Positions 1 through 5,705 of a stretch of 5,705 nucleotides of DNA are shown one piece after another. The stretch comes from a virus: positions 1 to 5,705 of the IMG/VR virus record IMGVR_UViG_3300045988_008128; one strand, written 5' to 3'. A program made the position numbers and the translations under genes. Each line of letters opens with the position of its first letter. Within the stretch, counting starts at the first letter, position 1. Below the pieces are notes generated by a model that searched no databases, was not told where the DNA came from, and worked only from the letters and a program-made list of their open reading frames with translations.

Positions 1-119
1 GACCGCACCAGAAGGAGGCTGGAAAGTGGGCACACTGGCTGACTACTTCGGAATCCCGACAGGCGTGAGCGGCCTGAAAGTGAACAGTCTGCCATTCAGA
101 GCATATGCAAAGGTGTGGA
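1..119. repeat. Terminal redundancy copy A, identical to 5587..5705. It marks a circular 5586-nt genome.
   Basis: A base-by-base comparison shows that 1..119 equals 5587..5705 exactly. The offset of 5586 is divisible by 3 and keeps the capsid reading frame continuous. Confidence 0.95.
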
Positions 120-1312
120 ACGAATGGTTCCGCGACGAAAATTTGCAGCAGCCTGTGACCCAGAGCATGGACGACACGACCACAACCGGCGTGAACACCG
201 GAACGAAACAATCAGACGCAGAAGCGGGCGGTCTGCCGCTGAAGGTCTGCAAATACAAGGACTACTTCACAAGCTGCCTCCCGTCTCCGCAGAAATCTGT
301 AGAACCGGTAACACTGCCAATGACAGGAAACGCACAGATTGTATGGCCAAACAGTGCAGAAATAATGGCAGACGGAAATATTTTCCAAAACGGTGGCGGA
401 AGCCTCGAAAACATTCCGATAAACACGAATATGAAAATCGCTGCATCAAAAAAGAACAACAAAAGCGGAAAATCGATTGTAATGTTCGGTGGACAAAAAA
501 GCGCAGGAGAAATCAATTACAGCTCAATGCAAGCAGACCTTAGCAACGTAACCGGCGCAACCATCAACGAACTGCGTCAGGCAATCGCAGTGCAGCACAT
601 CTTCGAGCGTGACGCAAGAACCGGCACCCGATACAAAGAAATCCTGAAAGGCGCATGGGGTGTGACAAGTCCGGATGCACGTCTTGACCGATCTGAGTAC
701 ATCGGCGGACACAGAATGCCAATCAACGTAAATCAGGTCATTCAGACCAGCAGCACCGACAGCACGTCGCCGCAGGGCAACACCGGAGCATACAGCATGA
801 CGACCTTGAGCAGAAACATGTGCACATACAGCGCAACAGAACATGGCTATGTTCTGGGTCTGGCAGCTATCCGCGTGGATCACAGCTATCAGCAGGGACT
901 TAGCAGACTGTGGACGCGCAGCACTCGATTCAGCTATTACGACCCGATGCTTGCAAACCTCGGTGAACAGGCAGTGCTAAATCAAGAGATTTATGCACAG
1001 GGCAAGGCGCAGGACGAAGAAGTTTTCGGCTATCAAGAAGCATGGGCCGATTACAGATACCGCACCAACATGGTAACAAGCGAAATGCGCAGCACCTACG
1101 CGCAAACGCTGGATGCATGGCACTATGCGGACAAGTACGGCGCACTTCCTACCCTATCCAGCAGCTGGATTAAAGAAGGAACAGAAAACATCGACCGAAC
1201 TCTTGCAGTACAGAGTTCCAACAGCCACCAGTTCATTTGCAACTTCTATTACAATCAGGCATGGACGCGACCGATGCCGATTTACAGCGTGCCAGGCATT
1301 GATACGATCTAA
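2..1312 (+). CDS. VP1: Major capsid protein VP1 (phiX174 F-like), C-terminal part. Its 5' end lies at 5249 on the circle.
   Basis: The frame is open from the window edge to TAA at 1310-1312. The GTG start at 26 in the ORF track is an artefact, because the same frame continues from the ATG at 5249 through the duplicated 119 nt. Microviridae capsid hallmarks are present: ADYFGIP, LPFRAYAKVWNEWFRDENLQ, ATINELRQAIAVQHIFERDARTGTRYKEILKGAWGV and a C-terminal RPMPIYS. The joined product is 549 aa, typical of gokushovirus-type VP1. Confidence 0.93.
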   Translation, partial: TAPEGGWKVGTLADYFGIPTGVSGLKVNSLPFRAYAKVWNEWFRDENLQQPVTQSMDDTTTTGVNTGTKQSDAEAGGLPLKVCKYKDYFTSCLPSPQKSVEPVTLPMTGNAQIVWPNSAEIMADGNIFQNGGGSLENIPINTNMKIAASKKNNKSGKSIVMFGGQKSAGEINYSSMQADLSNVTGATINELRQAIAVQHIFERDARTGTRYKEILKGAWGVTSPDARLDRSEYIGGHRMPINVNQVIQTSSTDSTSPQGNTGAYSMTTLSRNMCTYSATEHGYVLGLAAIRVDHSYQQGLSRLWTRSTRFSYYDPMLANLGEQAVLNQEIYAQGKAQDEEVFGYQEAWADYRYRTNMVTSEMRSTYAQTLDAWHYADKYGALPTLSSSWIKEGTENIDRTLAVQSSNSHQFICNFYYNQAWTRPMPIYSVPGIDTI

Positions 1313-1323
1313 GGGGGTGCAAA

Positions 1324-2256
1324 ATGGATCCTATTTTAGGAACATTATTGCAGTTTGGTTTGCCAGCACTCATAAACGTAGGCGGGCAACTGCTGCAAAC
1401 TGGTATCAAAAATATCAGCTCAGGCAGTGGACAACAGACGATGAGCGGTACAACAAACACAAGCAGCAACACAACCACAACGACCGAAGGAAGCACCACA
1501 GAAGCAGGAACCAGCGTAAAAACGGGCAGTATATCGGGCATCGTGGACGCACTAAAAACTGCAATGGGTACGCCAACAGGCAATAACGCAGCAGCGGCAG
1601 GAGCGTTCAACGCCGGACAAGCACAGACAGCAAACAACCTACAAAGCGGAATGTGGAGCATGGCAAACACCATGAACATGCTCTCAAACATAGCCGCAAA
1701 CGGCCTGAACCTTGCAAGTCAAACAAGCGCACAAAAATACAACTCTGCAGAAGCAGCAGCACAAAGAGCATGGCAAGAACAAATGTCAAACACCAGCTAT
1801 CAACGTGGCGTAAAAGACATGAAGGCAGCCGGATTAAACCCAGTACTTGCAGCATACAACGGCTTCGGCGCAGGTCTGGCACCGAGCGGAGGAACAGCAA
1901 GCAGCGGAATCCAAAGCTTTAGCCACACTCAGAGCGCAGCAATCCCAACAGCGCACACCGCAAACATGCAAGCTATGTATGACTACGGCAACAACACAGC
2001 CCAGTTCTTACAGAACGCAATGCAGACCATAAGCACAGCAAAAGAAACAAGTCAATACGGAATGGCAAGAACCATGGAGCAAATTGCAAACCAAGTTGGA
2101 ACAACATCTGCAAAGAGCGTACAAGACATCACGAAGAGCGAAAGCAGCACCAGCACACAAGACAGGCTCGGCGCACTGGACAAGCTACTACCGAGCGGAA
2201 ACAGCCACGGTGGTGGCGGAAACAGCCACGGTGGTGGCGGTGGTCGTGGAAGATAA
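1324..2256 (+). CDS. VP2: Minor capsid / DNA pilot protein VP2 (phiX174 H analogue).
   Basis: The SD-like GGGGG at 1313-1317 lies 6 nt before the ATG. The N-terminus is hydrophobic (MDPILGTLLQFGLPALINVGG) and is followed by Thr/Ser/Ala/Gln-rich low complexity. The motif QEQMSNTSYQRGVKDMKAAGLNPVLAAY matches my memory of the conserved VP2 core (MSNTAYQR..DMK.AGLNP.LAY). The gene sits directly after VP1, and the C-terminal tail is glycine-rich. Confidence 0.8.
   Translation: MDPILGTLLQFGLPALINVGGQLLQTGIKNISSGSGQQTMSGTTNTSSNTTTTTEGSTTEAGTSVKTGSISGIVDALKTAMGTPTGNNAAAAGAFNAGQAQTANNLQSGMWSMANTMNMLSNIAANGLNLASQTSAQKYNSAEAAAQRAWQEQMSNTSYQRGVKDMKAAGLNPVLAAYNGFGAGLAPSGGTASSGIQSFSHTQSAAIPTAHTANMQAMYDYGNNTAQFLQNAMQTISTAKETSQYGMARTMEQIANQVGTTSAKSVQDITKSESSTSTQDRLGALDKLLPSGNSHGGGGNSHGGGGGRGR
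2197..2238 (+). repeat. Perfect 21-nt tandem duplication (2 copies) inside the VP2 C-terminus, encoding GNSHGGG twice.
   Basis: GGAAACAGCCACGGTGGTGGC occurs at 2197-2217 and is repeated exactly at 2218-2238. The duplication is in frame and is followed by GGRGR and the stop. Confidence 0.95.
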
Positions 2257-2259
2257 CTA

Positions 2260-2297
2260 TTGACAAACACAGAAAAGAGGTGTATATTATGGGTGTA
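2260..2297 (+). promoter_or_regulatory. Promoter P1 (sigma70/sigmaA-type) with an overlapping GGTGTA-N7-GGTGTA direct repeat, a candidate operator.
   Basis: TTGACA lies at 2260-2265, followed by a 17-nt spacer and TATATT at 2283-2288. GGTGTA occurs at 2279-2284 and 2292-2297. The site lies in the VP2/RHH intergenic gap, about 40 nt upstream of the ATG at 2333, and shares the 13-nt core AAAGAGGTGTATA with P2. Confidence 0.6.
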
Positions 2298-2332
2298 CTA
2301 ATCACACACCTTACCTAGAAAGGGGTATAACC

Positions 2333-2542
2333 ATGAAAAACGTGACCAAAAGAATCAACATAAATCTGACAGACAGAGAAATCACAGCACTAGGAGCAAT
2401 CAAAGACGAAATGACACTCAGAGGGTGGAGCGGAAACACAAGCGACATCATCAGGGACGCAATAGCAGCTTACTGCACACAAGTAACAGGGTACACATTC
2501 GCAAACGAATGGAGCATTAAAACAACAAAAATCCATGATTAA
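2333..2542 (+). CDS. Small ribbon-helix-helix (CopG/Arc/MetJ-like) putative DNA-binding protein, 69 aa.
   Basis: The SD GAAAGGGG at 2318-2325 lies 7 nt before the ATG. The N-terminal pattern is KRININLTDRE (beta strand), ITALGAIKDEMTLRG (helix 1), a GNTS turn and DIIRDAIAAY (helix 2), which is the classic RHH layout. The ORF sits directly downstream of P1. The fold call is from pattern only. Confidence 0.6.
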   Translation: MKNVTKRININLTDREITALGAIKDEMTLRGWSGNTSDIIRDAIAAYCTQVTGYTFANEWSIKTTKIHD

Positions 2543-2550
2543 ATTGGACT

Positions 2551-2610
2551 TGACACGGAAAATTGTGTCAGTGGGCCCCAATAACATCAAGAAGGGTTAT
2601 TGGGGCCCAC
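2551..2610. repeat. Two abutting perfect stem-loops: a 6-bp stem at 2551-2570 and a 15-bp GC-rich stem at 2571-2610. They are candidate origin or RNA-structure elements.
   Basis: TGACAC (2551-2556) pairs with GTGTCA (2565-2570) around an 8-nt loop. GTGGGCCCCAATAAC (2571-2585) pairs perfectly with GTTATTGGGGCCCAC (2596-2610) around the 10-nt loop ATCAAGAAGG. No T-tract follows, so this is not a canonical intrinsic terminator. Confidence 0.85.
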
Positions 2611-2636
2611 TGAGGTGAAGAGGGTGAAACATCCAT

Positions 2637-3752
2637 ATGGGGTGCACAAGACCTTTGGTAAGATTCGCAGACGGCGAAATAACGACACTGAAAAAGTATC
2701 TACTGGCAGGAAAAAAACACAACAGTCAACTCAACATTGAAGGGCCATTCATGAATGAAAGCCTAGAAAAAAAGCTGCTGCGAAAGCTGAAAAGCGAAAA
2801 TGCACAAATACTGCCATGTGGACACTGTGCCGGCTGTAAAATGCAAAACGCAAGCAGCTGGGCAAACAGAATGGAGATGGAAATGCCATACCACGAAAAT
2901 GCGTGGTTTTTAACACTCACATACGACAATGAACACGTACCATGGTCTTACAATCAAGGTTTAGGCGTTAACAAAAAAACAGGCGAAATCATCATAGAAA
3001 ACTTAACACTGAACTATGAGGACATGCAAAAATTTTGGAAACGCCTAAGACGCTGGTTGGAATACCATGAAAGAAACACCGGGAAACTGATGTACTACCA
3101 AGCAGGCGAGTACGGCAGCCAGACACACAGGCCACATTATCATGCGATCGTGTACGATCTGCCGATAAAACCGGAAGAGCTGAAAATCTACAAACAGAAA
3201 AACGGCTTCAGATACTACAATGTTGAATGGCTAACAAAGCTGTGGGGTATGGGTCATGTAGTGGTAGCACCGGCAGAATGGAAAAACATGGCATACACCG
3301 CAAGATACACAACAAAAAAAATTTACGGCAAGGATTCAAAAAAATATTATGAAGAACTCGGAGTTTTACCAGAACGCTGCATGATGAGCAAAAATCCTGC
3401 AATCGGAATGCAGTACTATGAGGAACACAAAAATGAAATCTATGCAAAAGATGAAATCCAACTGAAAAACGGCAAGCGATGCAAACCGCCTAGATATTTC
3501 GATAAACTGTTTGACTTAGAGCATTCAAACAGTAAACCGCTATCTGAAGCAGAAAGTGAGACGATAGAAGACACAATAGTAAAAGCCGAATCTGAAGAAC
3601 TGAAAGCAATCAAAAGAGAACGCCGAAGAATCGCAAACGAAACGCTCTTTGCTCAGCTCAAGCAGACCGGCTTAACCATGCAAGAATATTATGACCTAAA
3701 AGATAAGAAAAATCAAGAAAAATTCAAAAAACTTATCCGAGAAGAAATTTAA
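2637..3752 (+). CDS. VP4: Replication initiation protein VP4 (HUH rolling-circle endonuclease, phiX174 A analogue).
   Basis: The N-terminus MGCTRPL fits the usual M.C..P start of microvirus Rep. A Cys cluster (CGHCAGC) is present, along with RCR motif 1 (FLTLTYD), motif 2 (HRPHYHAIVY, the HUH) and motif 3 (YTARYTTKK, tyrosine motif). The 371-aa size is typical. Confidence 0.92.
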   Translation: MGCTRPLVRFADGEITTLKKYLLAGKKHNSQLNIEGPFMNESLEKKLLRKLKSENAQILPCGHCAGCKMQNASSWANRMEMEMPYHENAWFLTLTYDNEHVPWSYNQGLGVNKKTGEIIIENLTLNYEDMQKFWKRLRRWLEYHERNTGKLMYYQAGEYGSQTHRPHYHAIVYDLPIKPEELKIYKQKNGFRYYNVEWLTKLWGMGHVVVAPAEWKNMAYTARYTTKKIYGKDSKKYYEELGVLPERCMMSKNPAIGMQYYEEHKNEIYAKDEIQLKNGKRCKPPRYFDKLFDLEHSNSKPLSEAESETIEDTIVKAESEELKAIKRERRRIANETLFAQLKQTGLTMQEYYDLKDKKNQEKFKKLIREEI

Positions 3753-3776
3753 AAGAACGGCTGAATAAAGGGAACT

Positions 3777-3814
3777 GGACGACGTGACACAAAAAAAAGT
3801 TACGTCGTCCTTTT
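3777..3814 (+). terminator. Rho-independent terminator after the Rep gene.
   Basis: GGACGACGTGAC (3777-3788) pairs with GTTACGTCGTCC (3799-3810), giving 12 bp with one G-U wobble. The loop is ACAAAAAAAA and the stem is followed by TTTT at 3811-3814. The structure begins 25 nt after the VP4 stop. Confidence 0.6.
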
Positions 3815-3816
3815 CA

Positions 3817-3834
3817 TGCGCGACCCAGCGCGCA
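3817..3834. repeat. Short GC-rich hairpin (6-bp stem, 6-nt loop) between the terminator and promoter P2.
   Basis: TGCGCG (3817-3822) pairs with CGCGCA (3829-3834) around the loop ACCCAG. GGACGAC recurs at 3777-3783 and 3837-3843, flanking the hairpin. Confidence 0.7.
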
Positions 3835-3861
3835 CCGGACGACCTCAAACAAAAATAGTGC

Positions 3862-3899
3862 TTGACAAGTGTATGAAAGAGGTGTATAATAAAGGTGTA
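3862..3899 (+). promoter_or_regulatory. Promoter P2, a perfect sigma70 consensus, with GTGTA repeats at 13-nt spacing (candidate operator).
   Basis: TTGACA lies at 3862-3867, followed by exactly 17 nt and TATAAT at 3885-3890. AGTGTA occurs at 3868-3873, GGTGTA at 3881-3886 and GGTGTA at 3894-3899, with starts 13 nt apart. About three quarters of a 38-nt alignment to P1 is identical by my manual count. Confidence 0.7.
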
Positions 3900-3917
3900 G
3901 AAAGGATGGTGCTCAAA

Positions 3918-4079
3918 ATGACACTGAAAAGTTACAGAGTTGAAATGACAAACATAAAAACAGGTAAAAAAGAAATCCGTCACACAGTAGCAGAAAGCAA
4001 GAAACTCGCAAAATGTCTCATCTGGGTAAGAGAAGATATCATAAGCCACTGGAAAATAAACAAAATAGAAGAAGAGTAA
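3918..4079 (+). CDS. Hypothetical small protein (53 aa from ATG 3918, or 57 aa from ATG 3906), with no recognisable family.
   Basis: The ORF track gives 3816..4079, but its first 70-plus nt run through promoter P2, so the start must be downstream of about 3897. The SD AAAGGA at 3901-3906 lies 11 nt before ATG 3918, and ATG 3906 is the alternative. The sequence MTLKSYRVEMTNIKTGKKEIRHTVAESKKLAKCLIWVREDIISHWKINKIEEE is charged and has no TM segment. Confidence 0.5.
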   Translation: MTLKSYRVEMTNIKTGKKEIRHTVAESKKLAKCLIWVREDIISHWKINKIEEE

Positions 4080-4117
4080 ACATTAAAAACGTGAGGTTGA
4101 CGAAAAACAGCCTTGCG

Positions 4118-4131
4118 TTTTTTTTTTTTTT
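4118..4131 (+). repeat. T14 homopolymer in the intergenic region.
   Basis: Fourteen consecutive T were counted directly. They are preceded by a weak AAAAAC/GTTTTT stem (4103-4108 with 4117-4122) and followed immediately by an extended -10-like element. Confidence 0.95.
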
Positions 4132-4139
4132 GGTAAAAT
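4131..4139 (+). promoter_or_regulatory. Possible extended -10 promoter (TGgTAAAAT) for the late/structural gene block.
   Basis: TG at 4131-4132 is followed by one base and then TAAAAT at 4134-4139. A T-rich tract lies upstream. Only a weak -35 is present (TTGCGT at 4113-4118, with a 15-nt spacer). The element lies 22 nt upstream of the strong SD and ATG at 4161. Confidence 0.35.
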
Positions 4140-4160
4140 GGAGAAAAAGGAGGTGGTATC

Positions 4161-4280
4161 ATGGCATACCGCAAGACCGTTAAACCGAAGGTAGACAAGA
4201 AAATTTTCACCAACACCGCAAAGAAAACCAAAAAGATCAACGTGAACCCGAAACCGAGCAGAGGGGGAATCAGGCTGTGA
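4161..4280 (+). CDS. Small basic DNA-binding/packaging protein (phiX174 J / gokushovirus VP8-ORF8 analogue), 39 aa. It is absent from the supplied ORF track.
   Basis: The strong SD AAGGAGGTGG at 4148-4157 lies 3 nt upstream of the ATG. The translation is MAYRKTVKPKVDKKIFTNTAKKTKKINVNPKPSRGGIRL, with 13 of 39 residues K or R and no acidic residues except one D. The ...KKIN...RGGIRL C-terminus is what I recall for microvirus small basic proteins. Confidence 0.8.
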   Translation: MAYRKTVKPKVDKKIFTNTAKKTKKINVNPKPSRGGIRL

Positions 4281-4480
4281 GCAAAAGACCGTATCACCAA
4301 AAAGAACCCGGTATGATGAAAGTAAGATATGCAATCAACATCGAAAACAACATGCTGAAAGAGATCGAGGACGTAAGCCAGACGCTGGAACTGCCCAGAT
4401 CAAAAGTAACGAGGGCACTGCTGCGCTACGGTCTCGATAACATCACCACGAAACAGATCTATGAACTGGGAAAGGAATAA
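4277..4480 (+). CDS. Second ribbon-helix-helix-like putative DNA-binding protein (67 aa from GTG 4277, or 55 aa from ATG 4313).
   Basis: GTG 4277 overlaps the TGA of the upstream ORF (GTGA) and has AGAGGGGGA at 4259-4267 as its SD. The RHH pattern is KVRYAINIENN (beta strand), MLKEIEDVSQTLE (helix 1), a LPRS turn and KVTRALLRYGL (helix 2). Confidence 0.6.
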   Translation: MSKRPYHQKEPGMMKVRYAINIENNMLKEIEDVSQTLELPRSKVTRALLRYGLDNITTKQIYELGKE

Positions 4481-4483
4481 GCC

Positions 4484-4759
4484 ATGATTCTGGAAATTGT
4501 CGCAATCAAAGATGAACTCGCAGGAACCTTCGGCAACTTGATGGTGGTCAACGAAAAAGTTGCACAGCGCACTTTCAAGTGGATGACAGCAGAAAGCGAA
4601 AAGCCGGACTGCGACGACAAACGCATCTACAAGCTGGGCATGTACGACACCGAAACCGGCCTGATCCAGAGCCAGACACCGGAGCTAGTCTATAACATGG
4701 AACAGGAAAAAAAGCAGATGGAAGAACCGAAGAGACCGGCACGAGGTAAGAAAGCATGA
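4484..4759 (+). CDS. Hypothetical 91-aa protein, possibly the conserved gokushovirus non-structural VP5-like protein.
   Basis: The SD GGGAAAGGA at 4468-4476 lies 7 nt upstream of the ATG. The stop overlaps the VP3 start (ATGA at 4756-4759). The N-terminal pattern ILEIVAIKDELAGTFGNLMVVNEKVAQRTF and the later YKLGMYDTETGLI resemble my recollection of small conserved microvirus ORFs. This is from memory and unverified. Confidence 0.55.
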   Translation: MILEIVAIKDELAGTFGNLMVVNEKVAQRTFKWMTAESEKPDCDDKRIYKLGMYDTETGLIQSQTPELVYNMEQEKKQMEEPKRPARGKKA

Positions 4760-5265
4760 AAATCTTCAAACCCTACGAAAAAGAAAAACCGGAAGTCCGC
4801 TGCAACTGCTGCGGGAACATCATGGAGCCGGAATACAAAGAACGGTACGACGAGTACGGGCACCCATATCTGGAAAAAGTAGGCGAAGTAAACACCTATG
4901 AAAAAATCCAGAGCTACCGCGACCAATGCGACGTGATGGCAATTCTCAGCCGATACGCAGCAGGCGACGAAAGCGCACTCGCAACGCCGGGTTACTACAT
5001 CGACACGACGAAACTGCCGAAAACCTACACCGAATACCTGAACATGATGAACGAGCAGCGCGAAAAGTTCGACATGTTGCCGCTGGAAATCAGACAGAAG
5101 TTCGGCATGAACTTCCAGAACTGGGCAGCGACCGCAGGGGAAACGGAATGGCTTGAAAAAATGGGCATTTCGACGAAAAACGATGCTGAAGCACAGGCTG
5201 ATCAGAACAGTGAAACCGTCAAAATGACGAAAAAAGAGGAAAGCGAAGATGAACAGAAACAGTGA
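4756..5265 (+). CDS. VP3: Internal scaffolding protein VP3.
   Basis: The SD GAGGT at 4742-4746 precedes the ATG. The motifs EVNTYEKIQSYRDQCDVMAILSRYAAGDESAL, KLPKTYTEYLNMMNEQREKFDMLPLEIRQKF and an acidic tail match the gokushovirus VP3 (Chlamydia-phage scaffold) pattern. The gene lies immediately upstream of VP1 and overlaps it by 17 nt. Confidence 0.8.
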   Translation: MKIFKPYEKEKPEVRCNCCGNIMEPEYKERYDEYGHPYLEKVGEVNTYEKIQSYRDQCDVMAILSRYAAGDESALATPGYYIDTTKLPKTYTEYLNMMNEQREKFDMLPLEIRQKFGMNFQNWAATAGETEWLEKMGISTKNDAEAQADQNSETVKMTKKEESEDEQKQ

Positions 5266-5705
5266 ACAACACTATGCACAGGTACCTCATGCAGAAATCA
5301 GGCGCGCAAAATTTCAGCGAGATTTTAATCTGCTGACCACGATGAACGAAGGCGATCTTGTACCGATCTACCTTGACGAGGTGCTACCTGCAGACACCTT
5401 CAAAATCAATCTGAACGCGCTGGTGCGTATGGCAACACCTTTGTATCCTGTAATGGATAACTGTTACATGGACTTCTATTTCTTTTTCGTGCCTGCACGC
5501 CTACTGTGGAAGCACTTTCAAAACCTGATGGGTCAGAACGATTCCACATTCTGGGCAGAAACAACCGAGTACACGACACCAGTAACGACCGCACCAGAAG
5601 GAGGCTGGAAAGTGGGCACACTGGCTGACTACTTCGGAATCCCGACAGGCGTGAGCGGCCTGAAAGTGAACAGTCTGCCATTCAGAGCATATGCAAAGGT
5701 GTGGA
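5249..5705 (+). CDS. VP1: Major capsid protein VP1, N-terminal part. It runs off the window and continues at position 2.
   Basis: The ATG at 5249 is preceded by AAGAGGA (5233-5239). The translation MNRNSEQHYAQVPHAEIRRAKFQRDFNLLTTMNEGDLVPIYLDEVLPADTFKINLNALVRMATPLYPVMDNCYMDFYFFFVPARLLW is the canonical microvirus capsid N-terminus. No stop occurs before the window end, which is why the ORF track omits it. Confidence 0.92.
   Translation, partial: MNRNSEQHYAQVPHAEIRRAKFQRDFNLLTTMNEGDLVPIYLDEVLPADTFKINLNALVRMATPLYPVMDNCYMDFYFFFVPARLLWKHFQNLMGQNDSTFWAETTEYTTPVTTAPEGGWKVGTLADYFGIPTGVSGLKVNSLPFRAYAKVW
5587..5705. repeat. Terminal redundancy copy B, identical to 1..119.
   Basis: Exact 119-nt identity with the window start. 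Confidence 0.95.

Follow-up and report, generated by a model that had tools for sequence, protein, structure and literature searches.

Introduction

In the CopG-RepB operon of pMV158-type rolling-circle plasmids, a small RHH protein is co-transcribed upstream of Rep, and the genes of RHH autorepressors usually directly follow the promoter that they control. In well-studied RHH operators the centre-to-centre spacing is about 7–11 bp. The CopG operator, a 13-bp pseudo-symmetric element around the -35 region, overlaps the promoter of its own operon and provides negative feedback on Rep dosage. The omega repressor of inc18 plasmids (e.g. pSM19035) acts on arrays of short direct or inverted repeats, made of contiguous 7-bp heptads, that cover several promoters, that of omega itself among them, so that separate operons are regulated together. 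Phage P22 encodes the RHH repressors Arc and Mnt, whose operators overlap promoters. In phiX174, a member of the same family as the virus described here, the promoters served by the host polymerase are constitutive, leaky terminators divide the transcription of one strand into units that overlap, and a transcription factor of the phage's own has not been described. As far as we know, the family Microviridae is presented in teaching as one whose transcription is constitutive and driven by the host. The searchable literature, which is incomplete and offers absence of evidence only, describes no RHH proteins, repressors or operators for this family, and thus holds no report contrary to the premise of the original prediction for this DNA that microviruses lack dedicated transcription factors.

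The DNA analysed here (IMG/VR record IMGVR_UViG_3300045988_008128, positions 1–5,705; hereafter the window) was found to carry a small RHH-like gene, orf69, and two promoters, P1 and P2, overlaid with GTGTA repeats. As in CopG-RepB, a small RHH-like gene (about 45–70 aa) lies immediately upstream of a rolling-circle (HUH-type) initiator, and the same feedback logic is proposed. The sites differ, being GTGTA pentamers 13 bp apart over the -10 region and the start, and they recur at P2, a promoter not linked to the first. There is no sign of an antisense RNA partner, the replicon belongs to an encapsidated ssDNA phage, and the homology between orf69 and CopG is below threshold. Compared with omega, which is carried by plasmids and has partition and toxin-antitoxin genes as its targets, the likeness lies in the arrangement, with 5-bp cores at 13-bp spacing in place of the heptads. 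Arc and Mnt come from a temperate dsDNA phage, and their palindromic operators of 17–21 bp are bound by a tetramer, whereas the sites of this ssDNA phage of roughly 5.6 kb are mainly direct repeats. The RHH-like gene and the operator-like repeats also set it apart from phiX174.

Results

Genome organisation

The window spans one full circle of a 5586-nt genome: its 5705 bases end in a 119-nt overlap, in which 5587–5705 repeat bases 1–119. The virus is a gokushovirus, its closest database relatives originate from pig and human faeces, and all genes of the genome are carried by the plus strand, as follows.

About 5249 through the origin to 1312, plus strand: VP1, major capsid protein (Phage_F, E 1e-126)
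1324–2256, plus strand: VP2, pilot protein
2333–2542, plus strand: orf69, 69 aa, RHH-like candidate repressor, first gene of the predicted P1 operon
2637–3752, plus strand: VP4, rolling-circle replication initiator (Rep; PF23343, E 1e-14; phrog_942, E 7e-98), second gene of the predicted P1 operon
3918–4079, plus strand: orf53, 53 aa, cargo gene of P2, with no recognisable family; relatives have unrelated small ORFs instead
4161–4280, plus strand: orf39, basic, 39 aa
4277 or 4313 to 4480, plus strand: orf67, 67 aa (from GTG 4277) or 55 aa (from ATG 4313), overlapping the orf39 stop codon
4484–4759, plus strand: VP5
4756–5265, plus strand: VP3, scaffold

The C-terminus of VP2 contains a repeated GNSHGGG, which stems from a perfect 21-nt tandem duplication (GCGGAAACAGCCACGGTGGTG twice, 2195–2236) located just 5' of P1.

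Anatomy of the P1 and P2 promoters

The two promoters and their repeats have the following components.

2260–2288, plus strand: P1 promoter; TTGACA (2260–2265), 17-nt spacer, TATATT (2283–2288); 11/12 match to consensus
2279–2284, plus strand: P1 subsite A, GGTGTA, at positions -16 to -11, partly within the -10 hexamer
2292–2297, plus strand: P1 subsite B, GGTGTA, over the expected start
2300–2310, plus strand: P1 downstream element AATC-NN-ACACC, whose ACACC (2306–2310) repeats GGTGT in inverted orientation, 13 nt downstream of subsite B
3862–3890, plus strand: P2 promoter; TTGACA (3862–3867), 17-nt spacer, TATAAT (3885–3890); 12/12 match, with 26 unique orthologous sequences
3868–3873, plus strand: P2 subsite 1, AGTGTA, directly adjoining the -35 hexamer
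3881–3886, plus strand: P2 subsite 2, GGTGTA, overlapping the -10 hexamer
3894–3899, plus strand: P2 subsite 3, GGTGTA, over the expected start and followed by the Shine-Dalgarno-like GAAAGGATGGTG

P1 and P2 are the best two sigma-70-type matches genome-wide, all remaining sites reaching 9/12 at most; shuffled genomes (1000) contained a mean of 0.05 sites at 11/12 or better, and none contained two. P1 starts 4 nt past the VP2 stop (2256) in the intergenic region before orf69, with which it is co-oriented, and the start codon of orf69 is preceded by the ribosome-binding site AAAGGGG. P2 lies between the terminator-like hairpin T1, described below, and orf53, again co-oriented, with GAAAGGATGGTG ahead of the gene, and both arrangements are the same in relatives. 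The two elements are very probably real promoters, from which, judging by the distance to the -10 hexamers, we infer transcription to start at about 2295–2297 (P1) and 3897–3899 (P2).

The original prediction had described these as twin promoters about 1.6 kb apart, sharing the -35 and -10 hexamers and the spacer length given above, an identical 13-nt block and a second GGTGTA 13 nt downstream, with a third GTGTA a further 13 nt upstream in P2. All of these features were recovered: the distance is 1602 nt, the block AAAGAGGTGTATA is found at 2274–2286 and 3876–3888, the paired GGTGTA copies begin at 2279 and 2292 in P1 and at 3881 and 3894 in P2, and the upstream copy of P2 is the AGTGTA at 3868. 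The 38-mers at 2260–2297 and 3862–3899 are identical at 29 of 38 positions and rank first among the direct repeats of the genome. Neighbouring subsites are 13 nt apart in both promoters, i.e. about 1.24 helical turns. The four consecutive transitions that had been pointed out between ACAC of P1 (2267–2270) and GTGT of P2 (3869–3872) are present, the two tetramers being also reverse complements; however, the ACAC of P1 is not conserved among relatives.

GGTGTA-N7-GGTGTA with up to two mismatches has 3 matches in the genome against 0.23 expected, while exact GTGTA-N8-GTGTA occurs 3 times, always within P1 or P2, against 0.009 expected (5000 shuffles, with a maximum of 1 per shuffle), so that the absence of the paired motif elsewhere, previously judged by eye, was supported by the count. 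Outside the promoters, GGTGTA was found as two isolated copies on the minus strand, within genes. An Rfam search at P1 and P2 gave no significant family.

Conservation of the repeats in related gokushoviruses

Relatives were collected in three sets: GenBank genomes, four with a VP4 about 62% identical and one at 58%; 37 IMG/VR contigs retrieved by the orf69 protein; and 43 microvirus contigs retrieved by the DNA motif alone. Pooled and freed of duplicates, they amount to about 58 distinct genomes, in which P1 keeps GGTGTATAnTATGrGTGTA. Across the 46 unique P1 sequences GGTGTATA-n-TATG-r-GTGTA is invariant, including GGTG (-16 to -13), which outdoes the -35 hexamer in conservation, and RGTGTA at the expected start. 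Downstream, AATC and ACAC are near-invariant with flanking 2-nt gaps that vary, and the first 11–13 bases of the spacer are free to vary. Many relatives also keep AGTGTAT-N5-AGGTGTATAATAAAGGTGTA in P2. In the 26 unique P2 sequences TTGACAAGTGTAT and AGGTGTATAATAAAGGTGTAGAAAGGA are conserved with five variable bases between them (GAAAG, GTTTT, AATTT, GCAAA and others), and the upstream subsite AGTGTA is kept in 24, followed by 5 nt that vary.

The invariant pentamers stand beside spacer positions saturated with changes, which indicates a position-specific constraint and not just shared recent ancestry, and the constrained pentamers include copies outside the positions contacted by the polymerase. 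The conservation beyond the hexamers that had been foreseen thus holds across about 58 diverged genomes, although the AAAGA part of the 13-nt identity between P1 and P2 is specific to the sub-lineage of the window. Judged from these alignments, the P1/P2 repeats are a real, conserved regulatory element.

A mini-ORF starting from the ATG at 2289 was considered for the conserved P1 segment and rejected, because conservation falls on the third codon position and variation on the first two, and because transcription is expected to start downstream of the ATG.

The same data bear on the possibility that P1 resembles P2 through a recent duplication or a gene conversion event, which would leave just two ordinary promoters. 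The P2 spacer GAAAGAGG in the sub-lineage of the window is closer to that of P1 than in other lineages, and one relative (L015, IMGVR_UViG_3300045988_010465, 5412–5460) carries the 13-nt unit of P2, GTGTATAATAAAA, in tandem, giving two overlapping TATAAT boxes. P1 and P2 nevertheless keep a class-specific consensus across genomes with VP4 about 60% identical, with variable positions adjoining invariant ones, and this origin is disfavoured by the comparative data to the point of being extremely improbable. The tandem copy in L015 suggests instead that an operator array may grow by duplication of the 13-nt unit.

In P1, the purine before the start-site GTGTA co-varies with the pyrimidine after ACAC (A-T 21, G-C 15, G-T 10, A-C 0; Fisher p 1e-5, without phylogenetic correction), a pattern that would fit either a symmetric protein site or base pairing. 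The latter would make the inverted repeat RGTGT-N9-ACACY a hairpin in the RNA or the viral single strand, acting in mRNA stability or priming. The stem would comprise just 5–6 bp and is energetically unremarkable (-5.8 kcal/mol, z -0.96), so that it was rejected as an RNA hairpin; the expected start lies inside the 5' arm, which the P1 mRNA would consequently lack, and the loop AATC is conserved in sequence. As the P2 of the window has no inverted copy and the direct repeats would be left unexplained, a role of the repeats as nucleic-acid structure appears very improbable.

The orf69 protein

Across the related genomes the first gene after P1 is an orf69 homologue (54–79 aa), followed by the Rep gene; the exception is MG945373, in which an extra ORF is inserted between P1 and the homologue. 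The position of orf69 directly after P1 is the usual one for an RHH autorepressor and counts in favour of orf69 as the regulator. The family comprises 237 clusters at E ≤ 1e-3, confined to contigs of about 5.5 kb, and none of these clusters has a precomputed Pfam domain.

The N-terminal strand of the protein, KR-x-N-x-N-L-T (KRININLT in the window), alternates polar with hydrophobic residues; N9, N11, L12 and T13 are invariant, K6 and R7 near-invariant, and the second helix begins with an invariant SDIIR. An AlphaFold2 monomer model (mean pLDDT 71), in which the strand cannot pair, shows residues 6–13 extended and helices at 14–29 and 36–52. Alignment and model together display the strand-helix-helix topology expected of the RHH superfamily. 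Pfam RHH_1 gave sub-threshold matches in 17 of 29 family members (best E 1e-3) and no match was obtained in a Pfam search with the orf69 of the window itself. By hhalign, the strand and both helices align with CopG, the RHH sequence chosen for comparison and entered by hand, at 55% probability and E 1e-4. The RHH domains of ParD2, PrpA and AtaR were among the top Foldseek matches (TM 0.54–0.69, E above 1), a profile search of the PDB with orf69 found nothing, and the JGI pipeline labels one family member an Arc/MetJ-type RHH regulator. Every RHH match of the family falls below curated thresholds, and orf69 is therefore described as a probable RHH protein on the strength of its sequence pattern and predicted fold.

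A conserved C-terminal extension (FANEW) is also present in the family. The 13-bp spacing of the subsites exceeds the 7–11 bp of RHH operators, which weakens the claim of P1 and P2 to be typical members of that class; binding would still be possible, as the FANEW extension could bridge orf69 dimers across 13 bp. Other traits of such operators are found, P1 being the promoter of an RHH-like gene with several short direct and inverted subsites that overlap its -10 region or start.

Searches of bacterial genomes for the orf69 protein found none, giving no prophage or host lead. One 48-kb contig (L205, 6174–11856; ENA ERZ27281030 k141_41694) joins a member of the clade to bacterial or plasmid-like genes (FtsX/ABC transporter, HTH_3, ParM-like). 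It ends in an Illumina adapter, and its viral part is about 90 nt short of the full 5756-nt circle; it was rejected as a case of integration and is probably an assembly chimera, not a prophage.

Co-occurrence of the motif and orf69

Retrieval by the orf69 protein yielded the P1 core at 37 of 37 loci, and the 43 microvirus contigs retrieved by the motif alone all contain the RHH gene. Overall, the core is present in 57 of the 58 genomes with an orf69 gene. The exception (L011) has the core with a 1-nt insertion, one extra base between the two GTGTA giving a subsite spacing of 14 bp. The core was found in none of the seven relatives that lack the orf69 gene, namely Dulem viruses 202, 205 and 206, with VP4 at 52% identity, and four genomes in which VP4 identity is about 35%; these have good promoters after VP4, and those promoters are free of GTGTA. 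Two ORFs of Dulem viruses were considered as RHH-like and dropped, being unsupported by Pfam and PHROGs. Since the carriers of the core form one clade, the co-occurrence is close to a single evolutionary event and a Fisher p value overstates the evidence. The motif and the orf69 strand are both invariant and thus show no co-variation between protein and DNA.

The repeats might alternatively be an operator for another protein, either a host factor, orf67, Rep (VP4) or the basic orf39. A host factor would fit the unrelated phages described below, which have the core and no orf69, and orf67 has weak Pfam matches to RHH_3 and HTH, its top Foldseek match being CopG (E 1.4). However, orf67 is restricted to the sub-lineage of the window, occurring in just 12 of the 58 motif-bearing genomes, and its predicted fold could be either RHH or HTH, which excludes it as a general partner of the motif. 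Homologues of Rep and orf39 are also found in the motif-free Dulem viruses, and among microviruses the motif tracks orf69 exactly, making an operator for one of these other proteins quite improbable. Of the RHH ORFs put forward in the original prediction as binding partners, orf69 is thus retained by its conservation with the motif, and orf67 is not.

The P2 cassette and neighbouring elements

The following elements were located around P2 and upstream of VP4.

2568–2613, plus strand: hairpin with a perfect 18-bp stem, between orf69 and VP4 on the predicted P1 transcript (region 2545–2620: -37.6 kcal/mol, z -6.9)
3772–3819, plus strand: T1, terminator-like hairpin followed by TTTTC, 3' of VP4 (-22.7 kcal/mol, z -5.0)
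4085–4130, plus strand: T2, intrinsic terminator with a 15-bp stem and a run of 14 T (-17.9 kcal/mol, z -4.2)
4131–4139, plus strand: P3, candidate third promoter with the extended -10 TGGTAAAAT and no GTGTA, 5' of orf39 and the structural genes

T1, P2, one small ORF and T2 form a self-contained cassette (3772–4130), of which the flanking terminators and the promoter are conserved. P2 is present in about 60% of the clade members and the cassette is missing from about 40%. Its cargo ORFs belong to at least nine unrelated small-protein families among the relatives, for which Pfam and PHROGs returned no function and no recognisable family. From these comparisons, the cassette behaves as a swap-in slot for accessory genes.

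The TGGTAAAAT element directly follows the T-run of T2, an arrangement conserved in several sub-lineages, and P3 is likely to be the promoter of orf39 and the structural genes. Because the two adjoin, the P2 transcript could end and the late transcript begin at one and the same element. From the order of promoters and terminators the genome would read as three units: P1-orf69-VP4-T1, P2-orf53-T2, and P3 with the late genes. In other sub-lineages (L004, about 1660–1765, and many relatives), a conserved peptide of ~34–52 aa (...IKDIKGIFNQLRKILAMLDKIYHAMGLDKEE) is encoded directly before orf39, apparently translationally coupled to it; the window does not have this gene.

The region before VP4 (2545–2620) contains two adjacent hairpins, the first formed by TGACAC/GTGTCA and the second being the 18-bp stem. 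This stem is kept throughout the clade and in the RHH-less Dulem viruses by means of many compensatory changes (GGGCCCCAATAAC, GGGGGGAATAGAC, CCTAGCCCCTATAAC); its loop CATCAAGA and the upstream AATTTTGTGTCA are conserved, and there is no T-tract after it. The stem may serve as a replication origin or nick site, or in the control of VP4 translation.

Occurrence of the core in unrelated phages

TTGACA-N13-GGTGTATAWT-N4-GTGTA was found at 17 loci in larger, unrelated phage contigs of about 11 families, whereas permuted control patterns gave 3 and 1 loci, i.e. were 5–15 times rarer. At two of the 17 loci the agreement with P1 extends to the unspecified ATGR. Carriers of the core among the unrelated phages include IMGVR_UViG_3300028591_001850 and 3300032282_002699. 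No orf69 homologue was found in the flanking DNA retrieved for 28 non-microvirus core loci, these 17 included, so that a portion of the shared sequence may belong to the promoter itself or be related to the host. Consensus promoters with the P1-like core GGTGTATAATATGRGTGTA occur at L148 (7863–7900), L170 (9663–9700) and L189 (minus strand, 3392 in the reversed locus), the last with a perfect GTGTACC-N5-GGTACAC palindrome at the start.

These loci raise the question of whether GGTG and the start-site GTGTA are simply an extended promoter consensus, read by the host RNA polymerase for strength or start selection with no phage regulator. The pyrimidine-purine steps that GTGTA would offer at the usual start distance agree with such a reading, and other phage early promoters have a long consensus too. 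On the other hand, the GTGTA that follows the -35 hexamer of P2 and the AATC-NN-ACAC of P1 (about +6 to +16) occupy positions that the polymerase is not known to read, and these outlying elements repeat the same pentamer in 13-nt phase. P1 does not conserve the position of the upstream GTGTA of P2, so that a promoter does not need it. GGTG cannot be read as an extended -10 element (TGn) either, being one base out of register with no TG before the -10 hexamer. P3 and the promoters of the sister clade do without GTGTA, which speaks against a mere consensus and for an orf69 operator. An extended consensus as the whole explanation is accordingly considered unlikely.

Proposed regulatory model

It seems, on balance of the sequence comparisons, somewhat probable that the P1/P2 repeats are the operator for orf69, an RHH autorepressor that would shut off both promoters. 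Host RNA polymerase would fire the strong P1 and P2 promoters from the double-stranded replicative form, P1 driving the two-gene operon orf69-VP4, which would end at T1, and P2 driving the single small accessory gene of the cassette bounded by T1 and T2. As dimers of orf69 accumulate, they would, we infer, bind the GTGTA subsites cooperatively and block RNA polymerase; each promoter would offer a subsite in the -10 region, one at the start and a third, which in P2 lies upstream and in P1 lies downstream in inverted orientation. The outcome would be negative autoregulation of the repressor-Rep operon and, with it, repression of the accessory gene; P3, which has no GTGTA, would be unaffected and the structural genes would stay expressed. 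The conserved, phased repeats agree with the operator that had originally been predicted; the dimer-of-dimers form that had been assumed for it is not upheld, as three or four subsites per promoter in mixed orientation suggest a cooperative multi-dimer array.

Discussion

RHH autorepressors are classic, and one placed ahead of a rolling-circle Rep is known from plasmids; what would be new here, going by our comparison with these systems, is the virus family. A wider proposal, which we hold more tentatively than the operator assignment and which stands close to an even balance, is that this gut gokushovirus clade encodes a dedicated RHH repressor, with feedback on Rep and a hypervariable accessory cassette gated through the same operator.

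If this is true, a genome as small as 5.6 kb devotes some of its coding capacity to transcriptional feedback, most likely in order to limit Rep dosage, as CopG does in rolling-circle plasmids. The repressor-promoter module would be very compact, pairing a ~70-aa protein with a ~40-bp operator, and since the genomes can be synthesised the pair of orf69 and operator is directly testable. The P2 cassette would be a regulated slot for unrelated small genes that are swapped in and out; its cargo genes are candidate host-takeover or anti-defence factors, and the slot is a place in which to seek microvirus accessory functions. The smallest DNA phages would thereby gain an early-to-late or dosage switch, possibly a carrier-state switch, contrary to the phiX174 paradigm.
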